From: a virus
Reading direction: 5' to 3' (one strand)
Virus genome (UHGV): UHGV-0276305
Length of the DNA stretch: 36,129 bases
Under the pieces are notes generated by a model. It was not told where the DNA came from. It worked only from the letters and a program-made list of their open reading frames with translations, and made no database searches. Positions 20,616 to 27,616 of the stretch are shown one piece after another. A program made the position numbers and the translations under genes. Within the stretch, counting starts at the first letter, position 1, and every line of letters starts with the position of its first letter.

Positions 20616-20691
20616 TGGAGAATCCGAAGGGACTCGAACCCTTATAAACCTGTTTTGCAGACAGGCACATAGCCATTTCTGTCACGGATTC
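20616..20691 (-). tRNA. tRNA-Cys (GCA)
   Basis: hand-folded: 7-bp acceptor GAATCCG/CGGATTC, anticodon arm CCTGT-CTGCAAA-ACAGG, T-arm AAGGG-TTCGAGT-CCCTT, CCA encoded. Confidence 0.8.
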
Positions 20692-20695
20692 AAAT

Positions 20696-20788
20696 TGGAG
20701 GAAGATACCAGACTTGAACTGGTACACCGATTTCTCAGCTACTGGCAGTTTAGCAAACTGCTCCCTTACCTTTTAGGGTTAATCTTCC
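20696..20788 (-). tRNA. tRNA-Ser (GCU), long variable arm
   Basis: 93 nt; acceptor GGAAGAT/ATCTTCC, anticodon arm GCAGT-TTGCTAA-ACTGC, T-arm ACCAG-TTCAAGT-CTGGT, CCA encoded. Confidence 0.75.
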
Positions 20789-20789
20789 A

Positions 20790-21533
20790 TTATTTCTGTA
20801 ATGCGTTCTTCATTTCTGGTGTTGCAATAGTGTCAATCACACCAGTTTTACAAGCATCATCAAACCAGTCTGGTAAGATACCTGCTAAGAACCCATTGAT
20901 ATTCGTTTTAAGGTACTCTGCAATAAGAGCAGCTTCTTCTTCAATCATCTGCACAACTTCATCTGCATAAGCTGTAATCTTCGAAATACCTTCATTAATC
21001 TTACTAACAGCTTGGTTAGCTAAATCAGAAATAGTATCAAGACCTTTGTCAATAGCATCTTGTAAGTCACTTAATACACCATTAACACTATCTAGTGTAC
21101 TGTTCATCATGTCAATAGCTTTTTGACCATACTCTGTAGCAACACCCATGATACCACTGAATGGTGTACAACCAACTTGTTCTCCTGCTGCACCCATAAC
21201 ATTGGAATACCCCTTTGCTACCTGCATACGTGATGAAAACTCATCAATAGACTTTTGACCGTAGTCTGTCAGAGTTTTAGTAGTTGCTGTAGTGCTTGTA
21301 AGGCTTGTTGTAAAGCTGTTTAGAAGGACTGTTGTAAGTCCAGCAGCAACAAGTTTCTCCTTCATTGTAGGGTCTGTTACAGAACTAATAGAGCTTACAA
21401 GTGATGTAGAAGCAGCTACGGTTCCACCGAGAACTGCTGCACCAGTAATAAGCGGGTTAGAGAACCCTTTACCGGTTTTTAAGAGATTAAAAATCTCCTT
21501 ACCTTGTTCTGTCATCTCTTTCATTAAGCACCT
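20790..21533 (-). CDS. hypothetical protein embedded at edge of tRNA cluster
   Basis: ORF track gives 20790..21587, but the first 18 codons overlap a tRNA-like gene; start more likely the MKEM Met at 21533; hydrophobic N-terminal segment then Ala/Thr-rich and helical regions. Confidence 0.5.
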   Translation of the reverse strand, partial: RCLMKEMTEQGKEIFNLLKTGKGFSNPLITGAAVLGGTVAASTSLVSSISSVTDPTMKEKLVAAGLTTVLLNSFTTSLTSTTATTKTLTDYGQKSIDEFSSRMQVAKGYSNVMGAAGEQVGCTPFSGIMGVATEYGQKAIDMMNSTLDSVNGVLSDLQDAIDKGLDTISDLANQAVSKINEGISKITAYADEVVQMIEEEAALIAEYLKTNINGFLAGILPDWFDDACKTGVIDTIATPEMKNALQK

Positions 21534-21540
21534 TTGAAAT

Positions 21541-21617
21541 TGGTAGTCCAGTGGGATTTGAACCCTCTTCTCATGTTTTTCAGACACGCGCTTTAACCAT
21601 ATAAGCTACTTGGACTA
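21541..21617 (-). tRNA. atypical tRNA-like gene, anticodon GAA (Phe-like)
   Basis: perfect 7-bp acceptor TAGTCCA/TGGACTA, D-stem GCTT/AAGC, anticodon arm CGTGT-CTGAAAA-ACATG, T-loop TTCAAAT; but 2 extra nt between acceptor and U8 and an A-A mismatch in T-stem. Confidence 0.35.
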
Positions 21618-21622
21618 TAAAT

Positions 21623-21698
21623 TGGGGTGACCTACGGGATTTGAACCCGTATAGACCATGTTCACAGCATGGGTCATTACCATTTATGATAAGGCCAC
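21623..21698 (-). tRNA. tRNA-His (GUG)
   Basis: acceptor GTGGCCT/AGGTCAC, D-stem TCAT/ATGA, anticodon arm CCATG-CTGTGAA-CATGG, T-arm ACGGG-TTCAAAT-CCCGT, CCA encoded. Confidence 0.8.
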
Positions 21699-21704
21699 AT
21701 TTAA

Positions 21705-21724
21705 GGACTCTCGTAAGAACCCTT
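21705..21724 (-). promoter_or_regulatory. conserved ~20-nt motif (plus-strand GGACTCTCGTAAGAACCCTT) just upstream of tRNA-His
   Basis: near-identical copies at 25261-25281 and a diverged copy at 24326-24347, each a few nt upstream (in the transcription direction) of an RNA gene. Confidence 0.3.
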
Positions 21725-21729
21725 AGAAG

Positions 21730-21805
21730 TGGCAGCGGCATAAGGATTTGAACCTTAATAGGACAGCTTCAGAGACTGTTGCATTGCCAGTTATGCTATA
21801 CCGCT
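21730..21805 (-). tRNA. tRNA-Gln (CUG)
   Basis: acceptor AGCGGTA/TGCCGCT, D-stem GCAT/ATGC, anticodon arm ACAGT-CTCTGAA-GCTGT, T-arm TAAGG-TTCAAAT-CCTTA, CCA encoded. Confidence 0.75.
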
Positions 21806-21810
21806 AAATT

Positions 21811-21889
21811 TGGTACTCCATATCGGATTCGAACCGATACATAACACAGATTTTAAGTCTGGCCTCTCTGCCAATTGGAGTAATGGAGC
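21811..21889 (-). tRNA. tRNA with anticodon UAA (Leu by anticodon; short variable loop)
   Basis: 79 nt; acceptor GCTCCAT/ATGGAGT, D-loop AATTGGCAGAG (Leu-like), anticodon loop CTTAAAA, T-arm ATCGG-TTCGAAT-CCGAT, A73, CCA encoded; variable loop only about 7 nt. Confidence 0.6.
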
Positions 21890-21891
21890 AT

Positions 21892-21967
21892 TGGCGGGGG
21901 ATGTTGGAATTGAACCAACTTCTTCGATTTCAAAGACCGAGGTTTTAACCTTGTAAACTAATCCCCT
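21892..21967 (-). tRNA. tRNA-Gln (UUG)
   Basis: acceptor with 1:72 A-C mismatch, D-stem GTTT/AAAC, anticodon arm TCGGT-CTTTGAA-ATCGA, T-arm GTTGG-TTCAATT-CCAAC, CCA encoded. Confidence 0.7.
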
Positions 21968-21975
21968 TTAAATCT

Positions 21976-22533
21976 TTACTTTCTCAGTGGATGAATAAAG
22001 AATGCCAACATAACTCTTTCCCTTGAGAATGCTCTTTCTTCTGGGACAACACTTTTTAGTTTCCATCCAATATAAATTCTCCAGTAAAACTGTTTACCAA
22101 AGACTTTGATTGATGGGATAAAAGCGAATAATCCCCAAGCATTACTGTTCCACATTAGGAGATAACCAGTCTGATTATCTTCAGGGTTAGAACTTACGTT
22201 GATATTACCTTTCCACTTAGTAACATCTTTTACATCTCTTCCTAATACATGGTAAGAGAAGTTATAAGCTTTGTTTCTCCAGAGCCATCCAACTCTCTGC
22301 ATGTAGACACCAAGCTTACCAATCTTTCTAATCTTAGCCCATCTCTCAACGTGGCCTTTGTCACCATCAATAGGGTTGTCATAGGTCTCCATCCATCTGA
22401 ATCCAAAAGGTAGATGCCCTTTCTTCTCACTGTAGAATGGAACTACGAAAGGTGCTAAGATGACTGCTAGGGTTGCTGCAAATGGTTCTAACAAAGCTAA
22501 GAAAACCCATGAAGCATACTTCAAATATCTCAT
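21976..22533 (-). CDS. hypothetical membrane-anchored protein inside tRNA cluster
   Basis: 185-aa ORF between tRNA genes; hydrophobic N-terminus (WVFLALLEPFAATLAVILAPFVVPF), Trp/Lys-rich remainder. Confidence 0.55.
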   Translation of the reverse strand: MRYLKYASWVFLALLEPFAATLAVILAPFVVPFYSEKKGHLPFGFRWMETYDNPIDGDKGHVERWAKIRKIGKLGVYMQRVGWLWRNKAYNFSYHVLGRDVKDVTKWKGNINVSSNPEDNQTGYLLMWNSNAWGLFAFIPSIKVFGKQFYWRIYIGWKLKSVVPEERAFSRERVMLAFFIHPLRK

Positions 22534-22552
22534 CTAAATAGCCTCTTTAAAT

Positions 22553-22628
22553 TGGCGCAGGATAAGGGATTCGAACCCCTATTAACAGCTTCGTAGACTG
22601 TTGCTCTATCCATTTGAACTAATCCTGC
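22553..22628 (-). tRNA. tRNA-Arg (ACG)
   Basis: acceptor GCAGGAT/ATCCTGC, anticodon arm ACAGT-CTACGAA-GCTGT, T-arm AGGGG-TTCGAAT-CCCTT, CCA encoded. Confidence 0.8.
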
Positions 22629-22633
22629 AAAAT

Positions 22634-22711
22634 TGGTGTTCCAAGACGGATTCGAACCGTCACTAGTACAAGGTTTGAGCTTGCATCCTCTGCCAATTGG
22701 GATACTGGAAC
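22634..22711 (-). tRNA. tRNA with anticodon CAA (Leu by anticodon; short variable loop)
   Basis: 78 nt; acceptor GTTCCAG/TTGGAAC, D-loop AATTGGCAGAG, anticodon arm GCAAG-CTCAAAC-CTTGT, T-arm GACGG-TTCGAAT-CCGTC, A73, CCA encoded; variable loop about 6 nt. Confidence 0.6.
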
Positions 22712-22712
22712 A

Positions 22713-22787
22713 TGGTACTCACTAAAGGACTTGAACCTTTTTCTTCATCTTGTAAGGGTGATGTTTTACCATATAAACTAAGCGAGT
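22713..22787 (-). tRNA. tRNA-Val (UAC)
   Basis: acceptor ACTCGCT/AGTGAGT, D-stem GTTT/AAAC, anticodon loop CTTACAA, T-arm AAAGG-TTCAAGT-CCTTT, CCA encoded. Confidence 0.75.
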
Positions 22788-22790
22788 GTG

Positions 22791-22878
22791 AAAGAGGTCT
22801 GAAGTTGTGCCGCTAACTCAACTCCGTGGAATTTGTTACGGTCTTCAGTTGACACCAGCGGTCTTTCACTTGACCTCT
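22791..22878. ncRNA. structured spacer: ~88-nt extended hairpin between tRNA-Val and tRNA-Thr
   Basis: outer 7-bp pairing agaggtc (22793-22799) with gacctct (22872-22878), inner tgaag/cttca pairing; no canonical T-loop so not callable as tRNA. Confidence 0.3.
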
Positions 22879-22882
22879 GAAT

Positions 22883-22958
22883 TGGTGCTCCCACAAGGAT
22901 TCGAACCCTGATAAGTTGCTTACAAGGCAACCGTAATAGCCAATTATACGATAGGAGC
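22883..22958 (-). tRNA. tRNA-Thr (UGU)
   Basis: acceptor GCTCCTA/TGGGAGC, anticodon arm GTTGC-CTTGTAA-GCAAC, T-arm CAGGG-TTCGAAT-CCTTG, CCA encoded. Confidence 0.8.
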
Positions 22959-22965
22959 ATTAATT

Positions 22966-23040
22966 TGGAGCATCCAGAGGGAATCGAACCCTCAACCTCA
23001 GTTTGGAAGACTGTAATTTTCCCGTTTAAACTATGGATGC
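22966..23040 (-). tRNA. tRNA-Gly (UCC)
   Basis: acceptor GCATCCA/TGGATGC, D-stem GTTT/AAAT, anticodon loop CTTCCAA, T-arm GAGGG-TTCGATT-CCCTC, CCA encoded. Confidence 0.75.
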
Positions 23041-23046
23041 ACTAAT

Positions 23047-23122
23047 TGGTGGAGAAGCAGGGGATTGAACCCTGTACTTAAGTTTGCAAAACTTATGTTT
23101 TAACCATGTAAACTACATCCCC
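23047..23122 (-). tRNA. tRNA-Ala (UGC)
   Basis: acceptor GGGGATG with G3-U70 wobble, D-stem GTTT/AAAC, anticodon arm TAAGT-TTTGCAA-ACTTA, T-arm CAGGG-TTCAATC-CCCTG, A73, CCA encoded. Confidence 0.75.
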
Positions 23123-23128
23123 AATGTT

Positions 23129-23204
23129 TGGTACAGGTGGAGGGAATTGAACCCATCGTCTTACTGATTAAGAGTCAGCCGCATAACCATTTTGCTACAC
23201 CTGC
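23129..23204 (-). tRNA. tRNA-Lys (CUU)
   Basis: acceptor GCAGGTG/CACCTGT, anticodon arm GCTGA-CTCTTAA-TCAGT, T-loop TTCAATT with imperfect T-stem (ATGGG/CCCTC), CCA encoded. Confidence 0.65.
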
Positions 23205-23211
23205 ATTAATT

Positions 23212-23289
23212 TGGTAGGAGACAAGGGATTCGAACCCTCAAACACCAACTTCTAAGGATGGTAGGTTTACCAATTACCGTCAATCTCCC
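23212..23289 (-). tRNA. tRNA with anticodon UAG (Leu by anticodon; short variable loop)
   Basis: 78 nt; acceptor GGGAGAT/GTCTCCT, D-loop contains TAATTGGTAAA, anticodon loop CTTAGAA (stem has one T-T mismatch), T-arm GAGGG-TTCGAAT-CCCTT, A73, CCA encoded. Confidence 0.5.
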
Positions 23290-23364
23290 ATTAAATCTTT
23301 TTAGAGAACTTCTAAGAACCTAAGCAACAAGGTTCCACAACAAGCTGTAATAACCTTAGAAGCC

Positions 23365-23390
23365 CTCTAAAAAGACCTAAAAAGGTCTTT
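23365..23390 (-). terminator. terminator-like hairpin inside tRNA cluster
   Basis: minus-strand AAAGACC-UUUUUA-GGUCUUU then UUAGAG; U-tract partly within stem. Confidence 0.35.
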
Positions 23391-23547
23391 GCATAGTCTT
23401 GTTTAATCCGGTGACTAGAACCTTTGGAGAGCTTGATATTATCTCTTCTCCGTGACACCTACTAGGTGTTTTATCTGTGTGTACGACAATACACGAGGGA
23501 TAAACCGAAAATGCGAGCAAGCATGGACGGTGTAAAATCTTATTAGG

Positions 23548-23635
23548 CGGTAAGTAAAGGAGTCGAACCCTCACCGTATCTCTACAGTGGCAACTGTTTT
23601 CAAGACAGTTTGGCTACCATTAGCCGCTACCTACC
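23548..23635 (-). tRNA. tRNA-Ser (UGA), long variable arm
   Basis: 88 nt; acceptor GGTAGGT/ACTTACC, anticodon arm ACTGT-CTTGAAA-ACAGT, about 20-nt variable arm, T-arm GAGGG-TTCGACT-CCTTT; CCA not encoded. Confidence 0.7.
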
Positions 23636-23648
23636 CCTAATAAGACTT

Positions 23649-23731
23649 TGGCATGGGACGGAGGAGTTGAACCACTTTGAAACGGTTTTGGAGGCCGTTG
23701 CTCATGCCTTAGAGTCTTAACATCGTCCCAC
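23649..23731 (-). tRNA. atypical tRNA-like gene, anticodon CCA (Trp-like)
   Basis: 83 nt; acceptor GTGGGAC/GTCCCAT, anticodon loop CTCCAAA on ACGGC/ACCGT stem, CCA encoded; D region about 7 nt too long and T-stem AGTGG/CCTCC has 2 mismatches. Confidence 0.4.
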
Positions 23732-23868
23732 ACTATAATTCGAAGCTTACCGTATTATCTCAACACTGTAAAGCCCCTTCTCAGATTATTTACATGTTCT
23801 GGAAAACATGAGATACAGACCACCTCCTTACACGGAGACCCGATAAGGTCGTCTAAGCAATCTGCTAA

Positions 23869-24216
23869 CTAATACTTTGCATGTCTTACCCTATGGCAAT
23901 TTGAACATAGCAAAACACATTTGTCAAGTTCATCTTTTAGTTCTTGAGAGAACTTCAGACTTTTTCTATGACCAATGTTAAAATCTTTCTCTGAAGGATT
24001 CAAATGATGGAAGTCATACACTGCTGGATGATACCTTTTACCACAATCATGACAAACCCCACCTTTGTACTCAATAGCTGAAAGTTTAAGTGCTCTTTGT
24101 CTTTCTATGGTTTGCTCATTAACACACTTTTTACAGTATGAATGAGTTCTCTTACCATCTTTCATGTAGAAATCATTTTCATCCTTGCTAAGTTTGCACC
24201 TAATACAAGTTTTCAT
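23869..24216 (-). CDS. HNH homing-endonuclease-like protein
   Basis: about 116 aa from MKTCIRCK (ORF-track N-terminal extension overlaps a tRNA-like gene); CxxC..CxxC zinc-finger-like N-terminus and HNH core (YDFHHLNP ... N ... LLCSNCHRVRH). Confidence 0.8.
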   Translation of the reverse strand: MKTCIRCKLSKDENDFYMKDGKRTHSYCKKCVNEQTIERQRALKLSAIEYKGGVCHDCGKRYHPAVYDFHHLNPSEKDFNIGHRKSLKFSQELKDELDKCVLLCSNCHRVRHAKY

Positions 24217-24230
24217 GATTTCTCCAAAAT

Positions 24231-24312
24231 TGGTCGAGGCGGCAGGACTCGAACCCGCATACTCCACTTACTCGGTTAACGGCGGTTTAGAAGACCGCTG
24301 AGATACGCCCCG
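24231..24312 (-). tRNA. atypical tRNA-like gene, anticodon UCU (Arg-like)
   Basis: 82 nt; acceptor CGGGGCG/CGCCTCG, canonical T-arm GCGGG-TTCGAGT-CCTGC, CCA encoded, perfect anticodon arm GCGGT-CTTCTAA-ACCGC; no recognisable D-arm and an extra 23-nt segment before the T-arm. Confidence 0.4.
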
Positions 24313-24325
24313 TAATTATCTTTAA

Positions 24326-24347
24326 AGACTCTCTTAGAAAGCCCTTA
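24326..24347 (-). promoter_or_regulatory. diverged copy of the conserved ~20-nt motif, just upstream of the Arg-like tRNA
   Basis: plus-strand agactctcttagaaagccctta versus ggactctcgtaagaaccctta at 21705. Confidence 0.25.
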
Positions 24348-24649
24348 AAGATGCCCACTTTATTAATCATACCGTGGGCTAGTACGCCAAATTCTTTGAT
24401 GAGGGATTGGAAGACCTCACTGGTGTTTAGCCTATCAAGCTACTGCCAGAAAAACATTGTCGTTTGCATTTATTTTAAATTTGCAAAATAGACGCTACGC
24501 AACGAAAACTATTCAGAATATGTACAACAAATTTCCCCACATTGTGTTACGTCTAACGCTCATGTATTGGTGTTTGAATTATACATATTATGAAGTATTT
24601 TAGTTACTATAAAGTGGTCACATCTCAATGTCAACAACTTTATTGAAAT

Positions 24650-24725
24650 TGGTACTGGTAGGTGGAATCGAACCACCGATGTTCCCTTATCAGGGGAGTG
24701 TTATAACCTTCTTAACTATACCAGC
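24650..24725 (-). tRNA. tRNA-Ile (GAU)
   Basis: acceptor GCTGGTA/TACCAGT, D-stem GTTA/TAAC, anticodon loop CTGATAA, T-arm GGTGG-TTCGATT-CCACC, CCA encoded. Confidence 0.75.
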
Positions 24726-24726
24726 T

Positions 24727-24803
24727 TGGAGGTTCAGATGGGAATCGAACCCACATTCATAGGGCTTATGAGACCCTTGCATTACCTTATCTGCGACTGA
24801 ACC
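24727..24803 (-). tRNA. tRNA-Met (CAU)
   Basis: acceptor GGTTCAG/CTGAACC, anticodon arm AGGGT-CTCATAA-GCCCT, T-arm GTGGG-TTCGATT-CCCAT, CCA encoded. Confidence 0.75.
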
Positions 24804-24807
24804 ATTT

Positions 24808-24883
24808 TGGTAGAAGTGGAGGGATTCGAACCCATCGCCTGTCAGATTAAAAGTCTGCCGCATCACCATTCTGCTACACTTCC
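24808..24883 (-). tRNA. tRNA-Lys (UUU)
   Basis: acceptor GGAAGTG/CACTTCT, anticodon loop CTTTTAA, T-loop TTCGAAT with same imperfect T-stem as tRNA-Lys(CUU), CCA encoded. Confidence 0.65.
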
Positions 24884-24887
24884 ATTA

Positions 24888-25031
24888 AATTATCTTTGTA
24901 GATAAGCTACCCAGACTTGCTTAAGGTCTGTAGCGATGTGCCTTTTTGGGTTTAAATCTAGAATTTACCCTTTCACCCTTTGTGGTCGCATACTCACAGG
25001 TAAGCTTAATAACTTATCTACAAAGATAATT
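24888..25031. repeat. 19-bp perfect inverted repeat flanking a ~106-bp core (long-stem structured element)
   Basis: 24888-24906 (aattatctttgtagataag) is the exact reverse complement of 25013-25031; core contains further short hairpins. Confidence 0.6.
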
Positions 25032-25032
25032 A

Positions 25033-25163
25033 CCAGACCGTTGTTTATCATCTTAAGTGCTACCATTACACCAACTCGACATCTGCCGAGTGAAGGAATC
25101 GAACCTTCGCCTTTTCTTTACCGAGAAATAGATTGTTTAAGTTTTGCTGTAAACGGTCTTCTG
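25033..25163. repeat. repeated spacer element copy A (ccagacc ... gtttgctg-N-ggtcttctg), contains a tRNA 3' fragment
   Basis: shares 5' ccagacc and 3' ttgctgNaaNggtcttctg with three other copies. Confidence 0.5.
25084..25108 (-). pseudogene. tRNA 3' fragment (T-arm plus acceptor 3' strand), no matching 5' half found
   Basis: GAAGG-TTCGATT-CCTTC T-arm followed by ACTCGGC; no complementary GCCGAGT within 100 nt upstream. Confidence 0.35.
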
Positions 25164-25176
25164 TAAATTTGTTGAG

Positions 25177-25250
25177 CCAGACCAAGTTTTAAATTTTTCA
25201 AAATTAAATTGGCTTGAAATTTTAAGTAACTTGCTGTATTTGGTCTTCTG
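25177..25250. repeat. repeated spacer element copy D
   Basis: ccagacc at 25177-25183 ... cttgctgtatttggtcttctg ending 25250. Confidence 0.5.
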
Positions 25251-25260
25251 CTCCTTTAAA

Positions 25261-25281
25261 GGATACTCGTAAGAACCCTTT
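25261..25281 (-). promoter_or_regulatory. second copy of the conserved ~20-nt motif (plus-strand GGATACTCGTAAGAACCCTTT)
   Basis: matches 21705-21724 at 18 of 20 positions; lies just upstream (in the transcription direction) of spacer copy D. Confidence 0.3.
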
Positions 25282-25311
25282 AAGGGAGGGGCTAAATAGC
25301 CCTCTCAAAAT

Positions 25312-25389
25312 TGGCGGTTACGAAGGGATTTGAACCCTCATCATCTCCCGTGACAGGGGAGTATTTTAACCAAATTAAACTACATAACC
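25312..25389 (-). tRNA. tRNA-Asp (GUC)
   Basis: acceptor GGTTATG/CGTAACC, D-stem GTTT/AAAT, anticodon arm CTCCC-CTGTCAC-GGGAG, T-arm GAGGG-TTCAAAT-CCCTT, CCA encoded. Confidence 0.8.
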
Positions 25390-25394
25390 TTTAT

Positions 25395-25482
25395 TGGTGT
25401 GCCGTGTAGGAGTCGAACCTACCGAGTCTCAATGACAAGGGATTTACAGTCCCCACCGCTACCATCTACGGGATAACGACAC
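25395..25482 (-). tRNA. tRNA-Tyr (GUA), long variable arm
   Basis: 88 nt; acceptor GTGTCGT/ACGGCAC, anticodon arm GGGGA-CTGTAAA-TCCCT, about 15-nt variable arm, T-arm GTAGG-TTCGACT-CCTAC, CCA encoded. Confidence 0.75.
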
Positions 25483-25551
25483 ATTTAATTTCTATTCAGG
25501 CTAAGGACTTGCACCTTACAAATCGGTGAGCAATTGCTTCTCTCCTAAATT

Positions 25552-25628
25552 TGGCGGTTAGTCAGGGATTCGAACCCTGTGCCATTCGCTTAACAGGCGA
25601 CCGCACATACCTTATGTGCTTCCTAACC
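25552..25628 (-). tRNA. tRNA-Asn (GUU)
   Basis: acceptor GGTTAGG/ACTAACC (one mismatch), D-stem GCAC/GTGC, anticodon loop CTGTTAA, T-arm CAGGG-TTCGAAT-CCCTG, CCA encoded. Confidence 0.75.
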
Positions 25629-25639
25629 TTAATACATTG

Positions 25640-25699
25640 CCAGACCGTGTTTTTTCTTTTATCCGCAAAAAGTAGTTTGTTGCTGAATACGGTCTTCTG
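25640..25699. repeat. repeated spacer element copy B
   Basis: ccagacc at 25640-25646 ... gtttgttgctgaatacggtcttctg ending 25699; directly abuts the 3' end of the next tRNA. Confidence 0.5.
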
Positions 25700-25705
25700 C
25701 AAAAT

Positions 25706-25782
25706 TGGAGGCGGGTGCAGGAGTCGAACCTACCGATACCATGCTAATGAGACATGTGAGACGCCCTTTCTCTATACCCGCA
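25706..25782 (-). tRNA. tRNA with anticodon CAU (Met, initiator or Ile2; unresolved)
   Basis: anticodon arm CATGT-CTCATTA-GCATG, T-arm GTAGG-TTCGACT-CCTGC, CCA encoded; position 1:72 unpaired (T-C) and 3 nt between acceptor and D-stem. Confidence 0.6.
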
Positions 25783-25793
25783 ATTCTTAATGA

Positions 25794-25866
25794 CCAGACC
25801 AAATCTCTTCTTTGTCCGATTTCGTGTCAGATGAATAAGATTAAGTTTGCTGCAATTGGTCTTCTG
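25794..25866. repeat. repeated spacer element copy C
   Basis: ccagacc at 25794-25800 ... gtttgctgcaattggtcttctg ending 25866. Confidence 0.5.
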
Positions 25867-25873
25867 TCAAAAC

Positions 25874-25951
25874 TGGCGTTCCAGAAGGGATTTGAACCCT
25901 CAAATATCCACTTTGAAAGAGTGGTGACTTTACCGTTTTGTCTACTGGAAC
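25874..25951 (-). tRNA. tRNA-Glu (UUC)
   Basis: acceptor GTTCCAG/CTGGAAC, anticodon arm CCACT-CTTTCAA-AGTGG, T-arm GAGGG-TTCAAAT-CCCTT, CCA encoded. Confidence 0.8.
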
Positions 25952-25958
25952 ATTAATT

Positions 25959-26035
25959 TGGTCTCTGTTGGAGGACTTGAACCTCCGGCCTTACCGCCCC
26001 AAACGGAACGCTCTACCAAGCTGAGCTAAACAGAG
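25959..26035 (-). tRNA. tRNA-Pro (UGG)
   Basis: acceptor CTCTGTT/AACAGAG, D-arm GCTC-AGCTTGGTA-GAGC, anticodon loop TTTGGGG, T-arm GGAGG-TTCAAGT-CCTCC, CCA encoded. Confidence 0.8.
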
Positions 26036-26160
26036 ATAAACTTTTCAAACTCTATGTAACCACTTTAACATTATTTTTTAGTGGTTGTCAAGAACTTTTT
26101 TAAAATATTTTTCAGTATCTTAGAAAAGCTCTCATTTCGTTTCTATGTAGAACATATTAA

Positions 26161-26193
26161 AGGGTATTAAACACATTGTCAATACCCTTTTTA
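26161..26193. terminator. hairpin with flanking T-runs between vWA gene and tRNA cluster
   Basis: 8-bp stem agggtatt / aataccct with 12-nt loop; TTTTT follows on plus strand, AAAAAG precedes it (weaker U-run on minus strand). Confidence 0.35.
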
Positions 26194-26200
26194 AAACTTT

Positions 26201-27616
26201 TTACCAGATATAACGGTCAATCATTACTGCTTTGAGCATTACACTAATTGGGTCAAACTTCTCACCACCAAGCAGAGCTTTTAAAGTGGCTGGAGAGAAA
26301 CCAGATACCATTGCTACACCGTTATCCTTAACAGATACTTCGCAAGTGCCATTACGGTTTGCTAAGTACCAGAATACCAGTTGTGGCATCTCATATCCAG
26401 CTTTTTTGTACTTACTCTGAATTGCTTCAAAGTTTGTACGACCGTTAGCTCCATCAACCTGATTGAACTCCATATCAGAGAAGATGATAAGCTTACTTGG
26501 CATATCTTTCTGAGTCAAGTTATTTCTCTTACCTGTCTCAAGAATGCGGTCAAAAGCTGCTTGTAAGTTAGTTGAACCGTATTCAACATGACGCATTACC
26601 TGACGATGACGGTTTCGTAAATCACCACTCAGTTCAATGAAGTGAGGGTTTGTTGAATAAACCATCAACTCATTCTTAAAGCAACCTGTATTACGTTCTG
26701 CTACATACAATGCAAGTGAAACACCAATATCAAGAGCAGTAATTGAACCAAAATTCACCCAAGACATTGAACTTGAAACATCAGACATACATAGAATGTT
26801 TTCACCCTCTGCCATCCAGTTTGGTAGTGCTTTCCACTGCTCATTAGCAACATCTGCATTACCATACTTAACAGATTTAATCACATCGTATGGGTAAACA
26901 GCACCAGCATTAATCTTAGTCTCACCCTTTGATAAGGACTCGATGTAAGCTTTGTAGCGTTCTCCATCTTTACGGTTAAACAGTTTTTGGTAACGTGCAG
27001 CAGCAAGTGAAGGAATCTTACTGTAGTCAATCTTACCAAACTCATTAGCAGAGATTTTTTGCTCAACTGTATCAGATAGTGCAGACAACAGTGTGCGGTA
27101 CTCTTTCTCACTCAAGTTGGCAAACTTACAGAAACGTTTTACAAACTGTTTGTGACGTGGTTTTACTCGTGGTAACCACTTAGCTGCTAAACCTGCTGTT
27201 GCAGGGTCTAGTAAAGCTGCTTCTAAATGTTTGAAGGCATCTGTCTCGAAACGAGTACCTACAAAGATTTTGAAGTCATCAAAGCGACCAAGCTCTGCAA
27301 TCTTATCCATAATGCGAAGAACCTGCGTAGGCTCTAAAACTTTATCTTCAATCGCTTGAAGTAAAACAGTTCGGAAAGCTTTACGCTCACCCATACCTTC
27401 TCGTACATCTCGCATATGCAGTAAAATACGAACTGCAACATCAGCATCCTCATGCAAAGCTTTGTAGAACAAGTCTGGTAAGATTTCTACATTGCTACGG
27501 CTAGAACCAGCAGCTTTGTAAAAGTCTACAAGAGCAGACATTGATGAAGTATGGTTTACAGCACCATTTTCAGTTCGACCTGCATGAAGGTGCGCATGTT
27601 TAAATAATTCGCTCAT
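26201..27616 (-). CDS. vWA-domain protein with N-terminal helical domain (candidate Ro60/TROVE-like RNA-binding protein)
   Basis: 471-aa ORF; C-terminal half has MIDAS-type DxSxS (MSDVSSSMS) and downstream T and D positions (GSTNL, LIIFSDMEFN) typical of vWA folds; N-terminal about 250 aa predicted helical; Ro60 relationship is inference from architecture and genomic context. Confidence 0.6.
   Translation of the reverse strand: MSELFKHAHLHAGRTENGAVNHTSSMSALVDFYKAAGSSRSNVEILPDLFYKALHEDADVAVRILLHMRDVREGMGERKAFRTVLLQAIEDKVLEPTQVLRIMDKIAELGRFDDFKIFVGTRFETDAFKHLEAALLDPATAGLAAKWLPRVKPRHKQFVKRFCKFANLSEKEYRTLLSALSDTVEQKISANEFGKIDYSKIPSLAAARYQKLFNRKDGERYKAYIESLSKGETKINAGAVYPYDVIKSVKYGNADVANEQWKALPNWMAEGENILCMSDVSSSMSWVNFGSITALDIGVSLALYVAERNTGCFKNELMVYSTNPHFIELSGDLRNRHRQVMRHVEYGSTNLQAAFDRILETGKRNNLTQKDMPSKLIIFSDMEFNQVDGANGRTNFEAIQSKYKKAGYEMPQLVFWYLANRNGTCEVSVKDNGVAMVSGFSPATLKALLGGEKFDPISVMLKAVMIDRYIW

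Follow-up and report, generated by a model that had tools for sequence, protein, structure and literature searches.

What does a long inverted repeat directly beside a phage tRNA gene represent? The window analysed here, i.e. the whole 36,129-nucleotide stretch of virus genome UHGV-0276305, comes from a Felixounavirus and is 99.6% identical to Salmonella phage FSL SP-107. Its best long-range inverted repeat lies at 24888-25031. A first-pass annotation left three options for this element: a miniature inverted-repeat mobile element, a long-stem ncRNA, or a recombination or endonuclease target. We find that the repeat is probably (with a probability of about 0.6) the closing helix of an independently folding RNA domain of ~145 nt, which would be a structured leader of tRNA-Lys(UUU) or a stable ncRNA.

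Position of the repeat in the tRNA operon

The perfect 19-bp inverted repeat with a ~106-bp core described in the first-pass annotation reappears at the same coordinates in our own scan. Specifically, its perfect 19-nt arms occupy 24888-24906 and 25013-25031, with 106 nt between them, and a repeat search returns arms of 22 nt (24888-24909 and 25010-25031) that are 95% complementary, include one non-Watson-Crick position and lie 100 nt apart. When the window is shuffled 200 times under a first-order Markov model and the arms may lie as far as 400 nt from each other, the longest inverted repeat has a mean length of 12.4 nt and a maximum of 16 nt, and none of the 200 reaches 19 nt.

The neighboring tRNA-Lys(UUU) gene (24808-24883, minus strand; ARAGORN, Rfam) is separated from the repeat by 4 bases (24884-24887), which agrees with the distance of 5 nt from its 5' end given earlier. 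It belongs to a cluster of 26 tRNA genes at 20616-26035, all on the minus strand, 25 of which are identified by ARAGORN and one by Rfam (24234-24312). Given this common minus-strand orientation of tRNA-Lys and its cluster, the element corresponds in RNA terms to a 5' leader; the orientation was not stated in the first-pass annotation. Two sigma70-like promoters head the operon, and no minus-strand terminator-like site was found between them (26062-26182) and the element. A minus-strand operon with strong upstream promoters and no intervening terminator is a transcription context that favors a leader RNA. The promoters and the parts of the element are as follows:

26182-26154 and 26091-26062, minus strand: two sigma70-like promoters heading the tRNA operon, TTGACA-17/18-TAATAT/TAAAGT
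25010-25031, minus strand: 5' strand of helix P1 (RNA sense), AAUUAUCUUUGUAGAUAAGUUA, the first repeat arm, based on pairing and covariation
24910-25009, minus strand: branched core inside P1
24948-24970, minus strand: P3 hairpin, GGGUAAAUU-CUA-GAUUUAAACCC
24912-24930, minus strand: P4 hairpin, CAGAC-CUUAAGCAA-GUCUG, adjoining the P1 3' strand
24888-24909, minus strand: 3' strand of P1, UAGCUUAUCUACAAAGAUAAUU, the second repeat arm, ending 4 nt before tRNA-Lys +1

The tRNA-Arg(UCU) gene at 24234-24312 (minus strand) has almost no D arm and a variable region of ~20 nt; it scores 31.7 bits with Rfam and is missed here by ARAGORN, which calls a normal tRNA-Arg(tct) at this place in relatives. The cluster also contains a 132-aa ORF with an HNH-type zinc-finger motif (23869-24267, minus strand), which has no Pfam match at E <=0.01 and is annotated as an HNH endonuclease in relatives. 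Other HNH insertions are located between tRNA-Asp and tRNA-Tyr in the relatives radambza and SPJ41.

Fold, covariation and distribution of the element

The minimum-free-energy fold of the minus strand has -48.3 kcal/mol (z = -5.3), and that of the plus strand is about equal (-44.8 kcal/mol, z = -5.4). Given that both strands fold about equally well, we assign the strand from context and from the pattern of G·U pairs. Across 18 distinct type A and type B sequences (types are described below), 98.6% of cells are paired in helices P1, P3 (apical part) and P4, compared with 23–48% when helix partners are slid by 1–3 columns as a control. Taken singly, P1 (22 pairs) has 97.9% of its cells paired in these 18 sequences, and P3 (helix 2) has 100%, with an A-U to G·U change in 8 sequences.

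Three pairs of P1 are changed on both sides (UA to CG twice, and GC to CG), a 1-nt deletion is paired on both P1 strands, and P4 shows a compensatory G-C to A-U change; this covariation comes mainly from two deep lineages (A vs. B) and so amounts to few independent events. RNAalifold, run without a supplied structure, predicts P1 with 24 pairs and also P4, and counts 5 pairs as compensatory. A-U to G·U changes are found at 6 pair positions, i.e. 4 in P1 and 1 each in P3 and P4, besides 2 invariant U·G pairs. As G·U pairs are legal only in the minus-sense RNA and become A·C mismatches on the plus strand, they point to selection on the minus-strand RNA. Among type A genomes, nucleotide diversity is 0.4–0.9% in the arms and 1.2% in the core, compared with 0.4% in tRNA-Lys and 10.8% in a nearby hairpin loop, and the low diversity of the element suggests purifying selection. 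The substitution pattern across the aligned genomes demonstrates that selection acting on the minus-strand RNA maintains the P1 helix and the P4 hairpin as well as the apical hairpin of P3. The first-pass annotation had stated that a fixed structural RNA would be favored if related phages carried the sequence at the same locus with arms that covary instead of being identical, and this is what the relatives show, in line with its long-stem ncRNA option.

The element occurs in four sequence types. Type A, searched as a 152-nt element, is present in 190 phage records at >=90% identity (193 places), with all but four matches at >=95% identity, and is always at the tRNA-Lys locus with essentially one match per record. 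Type B is found in ~60 further records, which have a Lys-Asp spacer of equal length and include Suspvirus, Mooglevirus and some Felixounavirus. This brings the total to ~250 phage genomes with the element at the same locus. Types A and B have common arms, the invariant apical P3 sequence AUUCUAGAUU, and the 3' hairpin, whereas the 5' halves of their cores (P2) are unrelated, and a convincing shared fold could not be defined for this half. Salmonella phage SPJ41 combines a type A neighboring module with a type B element, which indicates recombinational exchange of the two versions.

A third type, C, is picked up in the Pectobacterium phages Arno18 and Wc4-1 by a covariance model of types A and B (about 22.5 bits, E about 4e-5 in a small search). 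This type sits right before tRNA-Lys(UUU), its P1 of ~33 bp is unrelated in sequence to A and B, and its P4 reads CC(G/A)UC-CUUAAGCAA-GAUGG. Type D, from Yersinia phage P778, was identified through its fold and the loop it has in common with the other types, and was not detected by the A and B covariance model. It lies immediately before tRNA-Lys(UUU) (fold z = -3.2); its P1 (16+8 bp) differs in sequence from those of the other types, and its P4 reads AAAGUC-CCUUAGCAA-GACUUU. P1 measures 22–24 bp in type A, 21 bp in type B, and about 24–33 bp in types C and D. All four types have a closing helix of 21–33 bp, a branched core, and the YYUWAGCAA hairpin directly before tRNA-Lys(UUU), and the 9-nt P4 loop YYUWAGCAA is kept in each of them, with varying stem sequences. 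Despite differing upstream neighbors, tRNA-Lys(UUU) is the gene immediately downstream in every element-bearing lineage, and is the element's only constant partner across lineages. The tRNA-Lys(UUU) gene does exist without the element in Erwinia phage phiEa21-4, where the spacers hold no comparable structure (z about 0). In one Felixounavirus contig (L039 12679-12754; also L016), the downstream tRNA has the anticodon CUU instead of UUU, together with changes in the anticodon stem.

Public records often label the element a "hypothetical protein". For example, records of Bas63 (L038 4079-4189 and 4201-4353) and FelixO1 (AF320576) carry plus-strand CDSs named "hypothetical protein" or "unknown" over the element and the adjacent tRNA-like module, and these CDSs are in all likelihood spurious predictions made on non-coding RNA. 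On the minus strand, the sole ORF (33 aa) was rejected as coding: it loses an in-frame internal ATG in CHB7 and is thus not conserved, and it spans the 5' core half that is unrelated in type B. We also discarded a DnaA-box-like reading of the arms, which is not conserved in type B, and a kissing dimer via the palindromic CUUAAG of the P4 loop, for which type B has the non-palindromic CUUUAG.

Mobile DNA, DNA signals and RNA partners as alternative readings

Perfect 19-bp terminal repeats around a short non-coding core could be read as the ends of a miniature inverted-repeat transposable element (MITE) or other mobile DNA, the more so as two very different core "alleles" (A and B) swap independently of their flanks in SPJ41 and as the same arm sequence flanks other cargo (tRNA-Asn) in Arno18. 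MITEs are likewise short and non-coding with terminal inverted repeats, but they differ from the element, which is single-copy at a fixed locus (193 places in 190 records), lacks a target-site duplication, and has arms held by compensatory change. The checks for extra copies and for target-site duplications that the first-pass annotation proposed both speak against mobility: there is one full copy in the window and one per relative, always at the same locus, and no direct repeat is seen at the element's flanks, either in DNA (...GGTCTGGT, then the element, then TAATGG...) or in the RNA sense (...CGGUCUGGU, then AAUUAUC...GAUAAUU, then UAAUGG...). In addition, the element has no match in 5,426 E. 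coli genomes and no transposase near it, and changes in the arms are compensatory or G·U, such that pairing is kept rather than end identity. Where the element is absent, this arises via larger deletions between other repeats, and no precise presence/absence polymorphism was found. These results largely refute the mobile-element interpretation, which we reject as extremely improbable. A signal at the DNA level (a cruciform, a protein-binding palindrome, a replication or recombination site, or a homing-endonuclease target) would account for arms that are long, perfect and palindromic, and HNH endonuclease genes are indeed scattered across the tRNA cluster. We nonetheless regard such a signal as very improbable, given that G·U-only substitutions would leave one of the two hairpins of a DNA cruciform with A·C mismatches, that the arm sequence is fully replaced in types C and D with the fold kept, and that the core and the internal hairpin loop are conserved. 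The suggested recombination or endonuclease target likewise finds no support in the observed rearrangements, which use CAGAAGACC repeats, tRNA T-arms or a GATG match, and whose junctions never fall inside the arms:

warpig: recombination between two CAGAAGACC repeats; tRNA-Asn, Tyr and Asp lost, element kept
ESCO45: short GATG match at the tRNA-Lys deletion junction, with the upstream junction not defined; element kept
SP116: T arm of the tRNA-like module recombined with that of tRNA-Lys, which removed both tRNA-Lys and the element (L052 12295-12560)

In ESCO45, the losses comprise tRNA-Asp, most of the tRNA-like module, and tRNA-Lys, Met and Ile, and the element remains. Since SP116 lacks both the element and tRNA-Lys, the element is dispensable in culture.

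Upstream of the element, the window encodes what may be a protein partner for small RNAs, together with RNA features that resemble known ligands of such proteins:

26201-27616, minus strand: gene for a Ro60-fold protein, the first gene upstream of the tRNA operon (Pfam DUF2828+DUF7788, PHROG 850)
25033-25163, minus strand: permuted tRNA-like (YrlA-like) module, 1 nt upstream of P1
25144-25163, 25231-25250, 25680-25699 and 25847-25866, minus strand: copies of the motif CAGAAGACC-N5-CAGCAA

The Ro60-fold gene lies ~1.2 kb upstream of the element on the same strand, and its product, a homologue of Bas63 gp130, falls in a PHROG labelled "RNA-binding protein". Its AlphaFold model (pLDDT 89.6) has full-length matches to Ro60/TROVE only (2i91, TM 0.67; phage phiLo Ro60 9kop and 9l5y; E about 1e-8), the top 12 Foldseek matches are all Ro60, and the fold corresponds to Ro60/TROVE+vWA. 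The protein is also 33% identical to a mycobacteriophage "Ro-like RNA binding protein". The Bas63 preprint notes the Ro60 likeness of gp130, reports an anti-Ppl role for it, and guesses that some "tRNAs" are Y RNAs. The YrlA-like module consists of a closing stem (CAGAAGACCG/CGGUCUGG), a V hairpin, a canonical T arm (25092-25108), a closed 7-bp acceptor hairpin (25074-25091), and a D arm (25057-25071), and bacterial YrlA Y RNAs are built in this same V-T-AS-D order (Chen et al. 2014, PMC4201824). The acceptor hairpin covaries across genera (ACUCGGC/GUCGAGU, ACACG/CGUGU and ACCCUUC/GAAGGGU). The motif CAGAAGACC-N5-CAGCAA has 4 copies in the operon vs. 0.1 expected, and every copy forms the 5' side of a hairpin that is closed by GGUCUGG. 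Hairpins of this stem-WWUACAGCAA kind cluster by the Ro60-like genes of three other phage records (L072, L075 and L076), with single copies near those of L074 and L077, and may be protein-binding sites. In two of these, the distant 143-kb phages L072 and L076, the Ro60-like gene is followed by at least two permuted tRNA-like modules and stem-WWUACAGCAA hairpins. As far as the modelled fold goes, the Ro60-fold gene and the YrlA-like mimic are a concrete candidate for a phage Ro60/Y-RNA particle, and the locus would supply RNA candidates for such a particle in the tractable E. coli phage Bas63.

Could the element itself be a second, Y-RNA-like subunit of this Ro60-like RNP, with its P4 loop as a miniature of the stem-WWUACAGCAA motif? 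We find this rather doubtful. It is true that a gene with a predicted Ro60 fold is present in the same phage, that the tRNA-like module ends 1 nt before P1, and that the P4 loop (...AGCAA) resembles CAGAAGACC-N5-CAGCAA, which is also found beside Ro60-like genes in distant phages; Bas63 gp130 is moreover reported to counter Ppl, with Y RNAs suspected among the Bas63 "tRNAs". The element also has the generic Y-RNA shape of a long 5'-3' stem round a large internal loop (PMC12135203): its P1 of 22–24 bp encloses ~100 nt, as Y RNAs and YrlA with Ro60 likewise have a long terminal stem and a large internal loop (PMC4201824; phiLo Yrl1/2, PMC12135203), although this shape is not specific to Y RNAs. 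Like Y RNAs, it is located near a Ro60 orthologue, in a phage with a Ro60-fold gene and directly beside a YrlA-like tRNA mimic. Unlike YrlA, however, it has no GNCGAA/CGAA motif and no tRNA-like domain of its own; specifically, the Ro60-binding motif GNCGAAN0-1G/CGAA, as defined from PMC4201824 and PMC12135203, is absent from P1 and the adjoining loop in types A to D. The element and Ro60-like genes also fail to co-occur: Arno18 (91.7 kb, whole genome checked) has a type C element but no Ro60-like gene, with no UACAGCAA motif in its tRNA cluster by pattern search, and L072 and L076 have a Ro60-like gene and tRNA-like modules but no such element. Judging from these genomes, the element is probably not an obligatory part of the Ro60-like system.

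The constant presence of tRNA-Lys(UUU), which is a target of the host anticodon-nuclease defences PrrC and PARIS, raises another prospect, namely that the element helps or guards this tRNA as a decoy or sensor for anticodon nucleases (PrrC, PARIS AriB) or as a cis-acting chaperone. The strict linkage in four lineages with different upstream neighbors agrees with this, as does the resemblance of the type A P4, CAGAC-CUUAAGCAA-GUCUG, to the tRNA-Lys anticodon arm, CAGA-CUUUUAA-UCUG. Such a role is nevertheless improbable, as the likeness to the anticodon stem is missing in types B, C and D, the P4 loop has 9 nt and no UUU anticodon, ESCO45 kept the element after losing tRNA-Lys, and phiEa21-4 has tRNA-Lys(UUU) and no element. 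Stated more broadly, a dedicated trans-acting RNA, either as partner of the Ro60-like protein (gp130, anti-Ppl) or as guard or decoy of tRNA-Lys(UUU), with YYUWAGCAA as its recognition surface, is a minority option that we consider possible but unlikely. The locus also offers a testable connection between a leader RNA and tRNA-Lys(UUU), which host defences often target. We give hardly any credence to the idea that the element forms an internal segment of a permuted (two-piece) tmRNA gene, even though ssrA is reported for Moogle (PMC4319497). In that phage (L058 12382-13130), ARAGORN makes a 749-nt "tmRNA*" call that extends from the tRNA-like module across the element and three tRNAs to a tag template for ANDNVFLAVA; the template is conserved with synonymous changes, and weak Rfam tmRNA matches exist below threshold. 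Against this, three tRNA genes and a strong promoter (24634-24606) stand between the tRNA-like module and the tag, the acceptor hairpin lacks the G3·U70 alanine identity pair, and ARAGORN makes no tmRNA call in the window. The element is also present in Arno18 and P778, where a pattern search of the loci did not find the tag template, and L072 and L076 have tRNA-like modules beside Ro60-like genes without any tag. On our reading, the 749-nt call in Moogle would be a concatenation of separate features.

The tag template is located as follows:

24432-24467 (within 24314-24503), minus strand: tmRNA-like tag template, ANDNVFLAVA followed by two stop codons

Its sequence is GCA AAC GAC AAU GUU UUU CUG GCA GUA GCU UGA UAG. 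The template has its own promoter (24634-24606) upstream and is followed by tRNA-Arg(UCU), and it is kept in Susp- and Mooglevirus and also in Erwinia phage phiEa21-4 (as ANDAQFLAVA).

A probable structured leader of tRNA-Lys(UUU) and its possible processing

As a structured leader of tRNA-Lys(UUU) or a stable ncRNA, the domain would be transcribed from the minus strand within the polycistronic tRNA precursor. RNase P cleavage at tRNA-Lys +1 would then make the 3' end of the element, 4 nt after P1. By analogy with known substrates, P1 (21–33 bp) would act as a processing and/or end-protecting stem, most likely as a substrate of RNase III; it does contain the continuous dsRNA of at least ~20 bp that RNase III substrates require. 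Cleavage of P1 would free pre-tRNA-Lys from the tRNA-like RNA upstream and liberate a core RNA of ~100–145 nt. The released core would probably persist as a small stable RNA, with the invariant loops (UUCUAGA in P3 and YYUWAGCAA in P4) as contact surfaces for a putative partner. We infer all of these processing steps from the fold and its context. The conserved 100-nt core and the invariant 9-nt loop imply that the element is more than a spacer or a mere processing stem.

Related leader hairpins with the same stem base, shorter or longer than P1, precede other tRNAs of the same operon, one of which was recovered by the element-derived covariance model with 26.3 bits:

23286-23387, minus strand: paralogous long leader hairpin, ...UCUUUUUAGAG.../...CUCUAAAAAGAUUUAAU, with its end immediately ahead of tRNA-Leu(UAG)

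Likewise, tRNA-Arg(UCU) is preceded by a hairpin of 16 bp whose stem base is AUCUUU.../...AAAGAU-AAUUA (24318-24352, minus strand), and the stem base UCUUU.../...AAAGAU plus AAUU is common to P1 and to the leader hairpins of tRNA-Leu(UAG) and tRNA-Arg(UCU). In Arno18, the arms AAUUAUCUUUGG/CCAAAGAUAAUU bracket a complete tRNA-Asn, with leader-trailer pairing that includes CCA (L071 3100-3212). The tRNA-Leu and tRNA-Arg hairpins and the Arno18 bracket fit a generic role as processing stems. From these parallels, P1 seems to represent a bracket or processing stem that recurs in these operons, here with an unusually large conserved cargo. The leader motif AAAGAUNWWUWA is not enriched (21 matches vs. 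15.3 expected). In Arno18, the tRNA-Asp that follows the bracketed tRNA-Asn has the same UUUAAU/GG junction as tRNA-Lys in the window.

The closest parallels for such a stem are the RNase III stems of rRNA operons and of the T7 early region, which likewise are helices of at least 20 bp that flank a unit in a polycistronic transcript. Those stems flank RNA of known role, whereas the cargo of the element is a 100-nt core and its cleavage is predicted only. That stable RNAs can be concealed in phage tRNA clusters is long established. Like the element, RNA species 1 and 2 of T4 (rnaC and rnaD) are structured RNAs inside a phage tRNA cluster, and they are annotated as small stable RNAs that are co-transcribed and processed with tRNAs. 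Species 1 is reportedly an RNase III substrate in vitro, as Paddock and colleagues are said to have found in 1976, and to our knowledge both RNAs have been unexplained for 50 years. We rejected rnaC and rnaD as counterparts of the element, given that they fold differently: rnaC folds like a tRNA, with a canonical T arm and expanded arms, whereas the element has no T arm, no D arm and no similarity to it, and is instead marked by its 21–33 bp closing helix and YYUWAGCAA loop.

In keeping with this, the T-arm motif GGUUCRANYCC is absent from 24888-25031, and searches of Rfam 15 left the element unmatched, both at the gathering threshold and with E relaxed to 10, including in a 436-nt search. In the literature on Felix O1 ncRNA or transcriptomes, nothing was found on the element. 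The element would thus be an undescribed variant of stable structured RNA inside a phage tRNA operon that is absent from Rfam, and a clean, covariation-backed case of such a hidden RNA in ~250 Felix O1-like phages of the therapeutic type.

Other structured RNAs are found close to the element in relatives. In Arno18 and P778, tRNA-like RNAs of normal order are located upstream of the elements (L006 544-843, minus strand, 5' part; L075 9970-10400), and these resemble T4 species 1 in having an acceptor stem, a T arm and large insertions. Susp- and Mooglevirus have a 79-nt insertion between tRNA-Lys and tRNA-Met (L003 378-456, minus strand; Michonne and Sf13), which forms a long hairpin before tRNA-Met (GCCCUU...GAAGAAC...GUUCUUC...AAGGGC).
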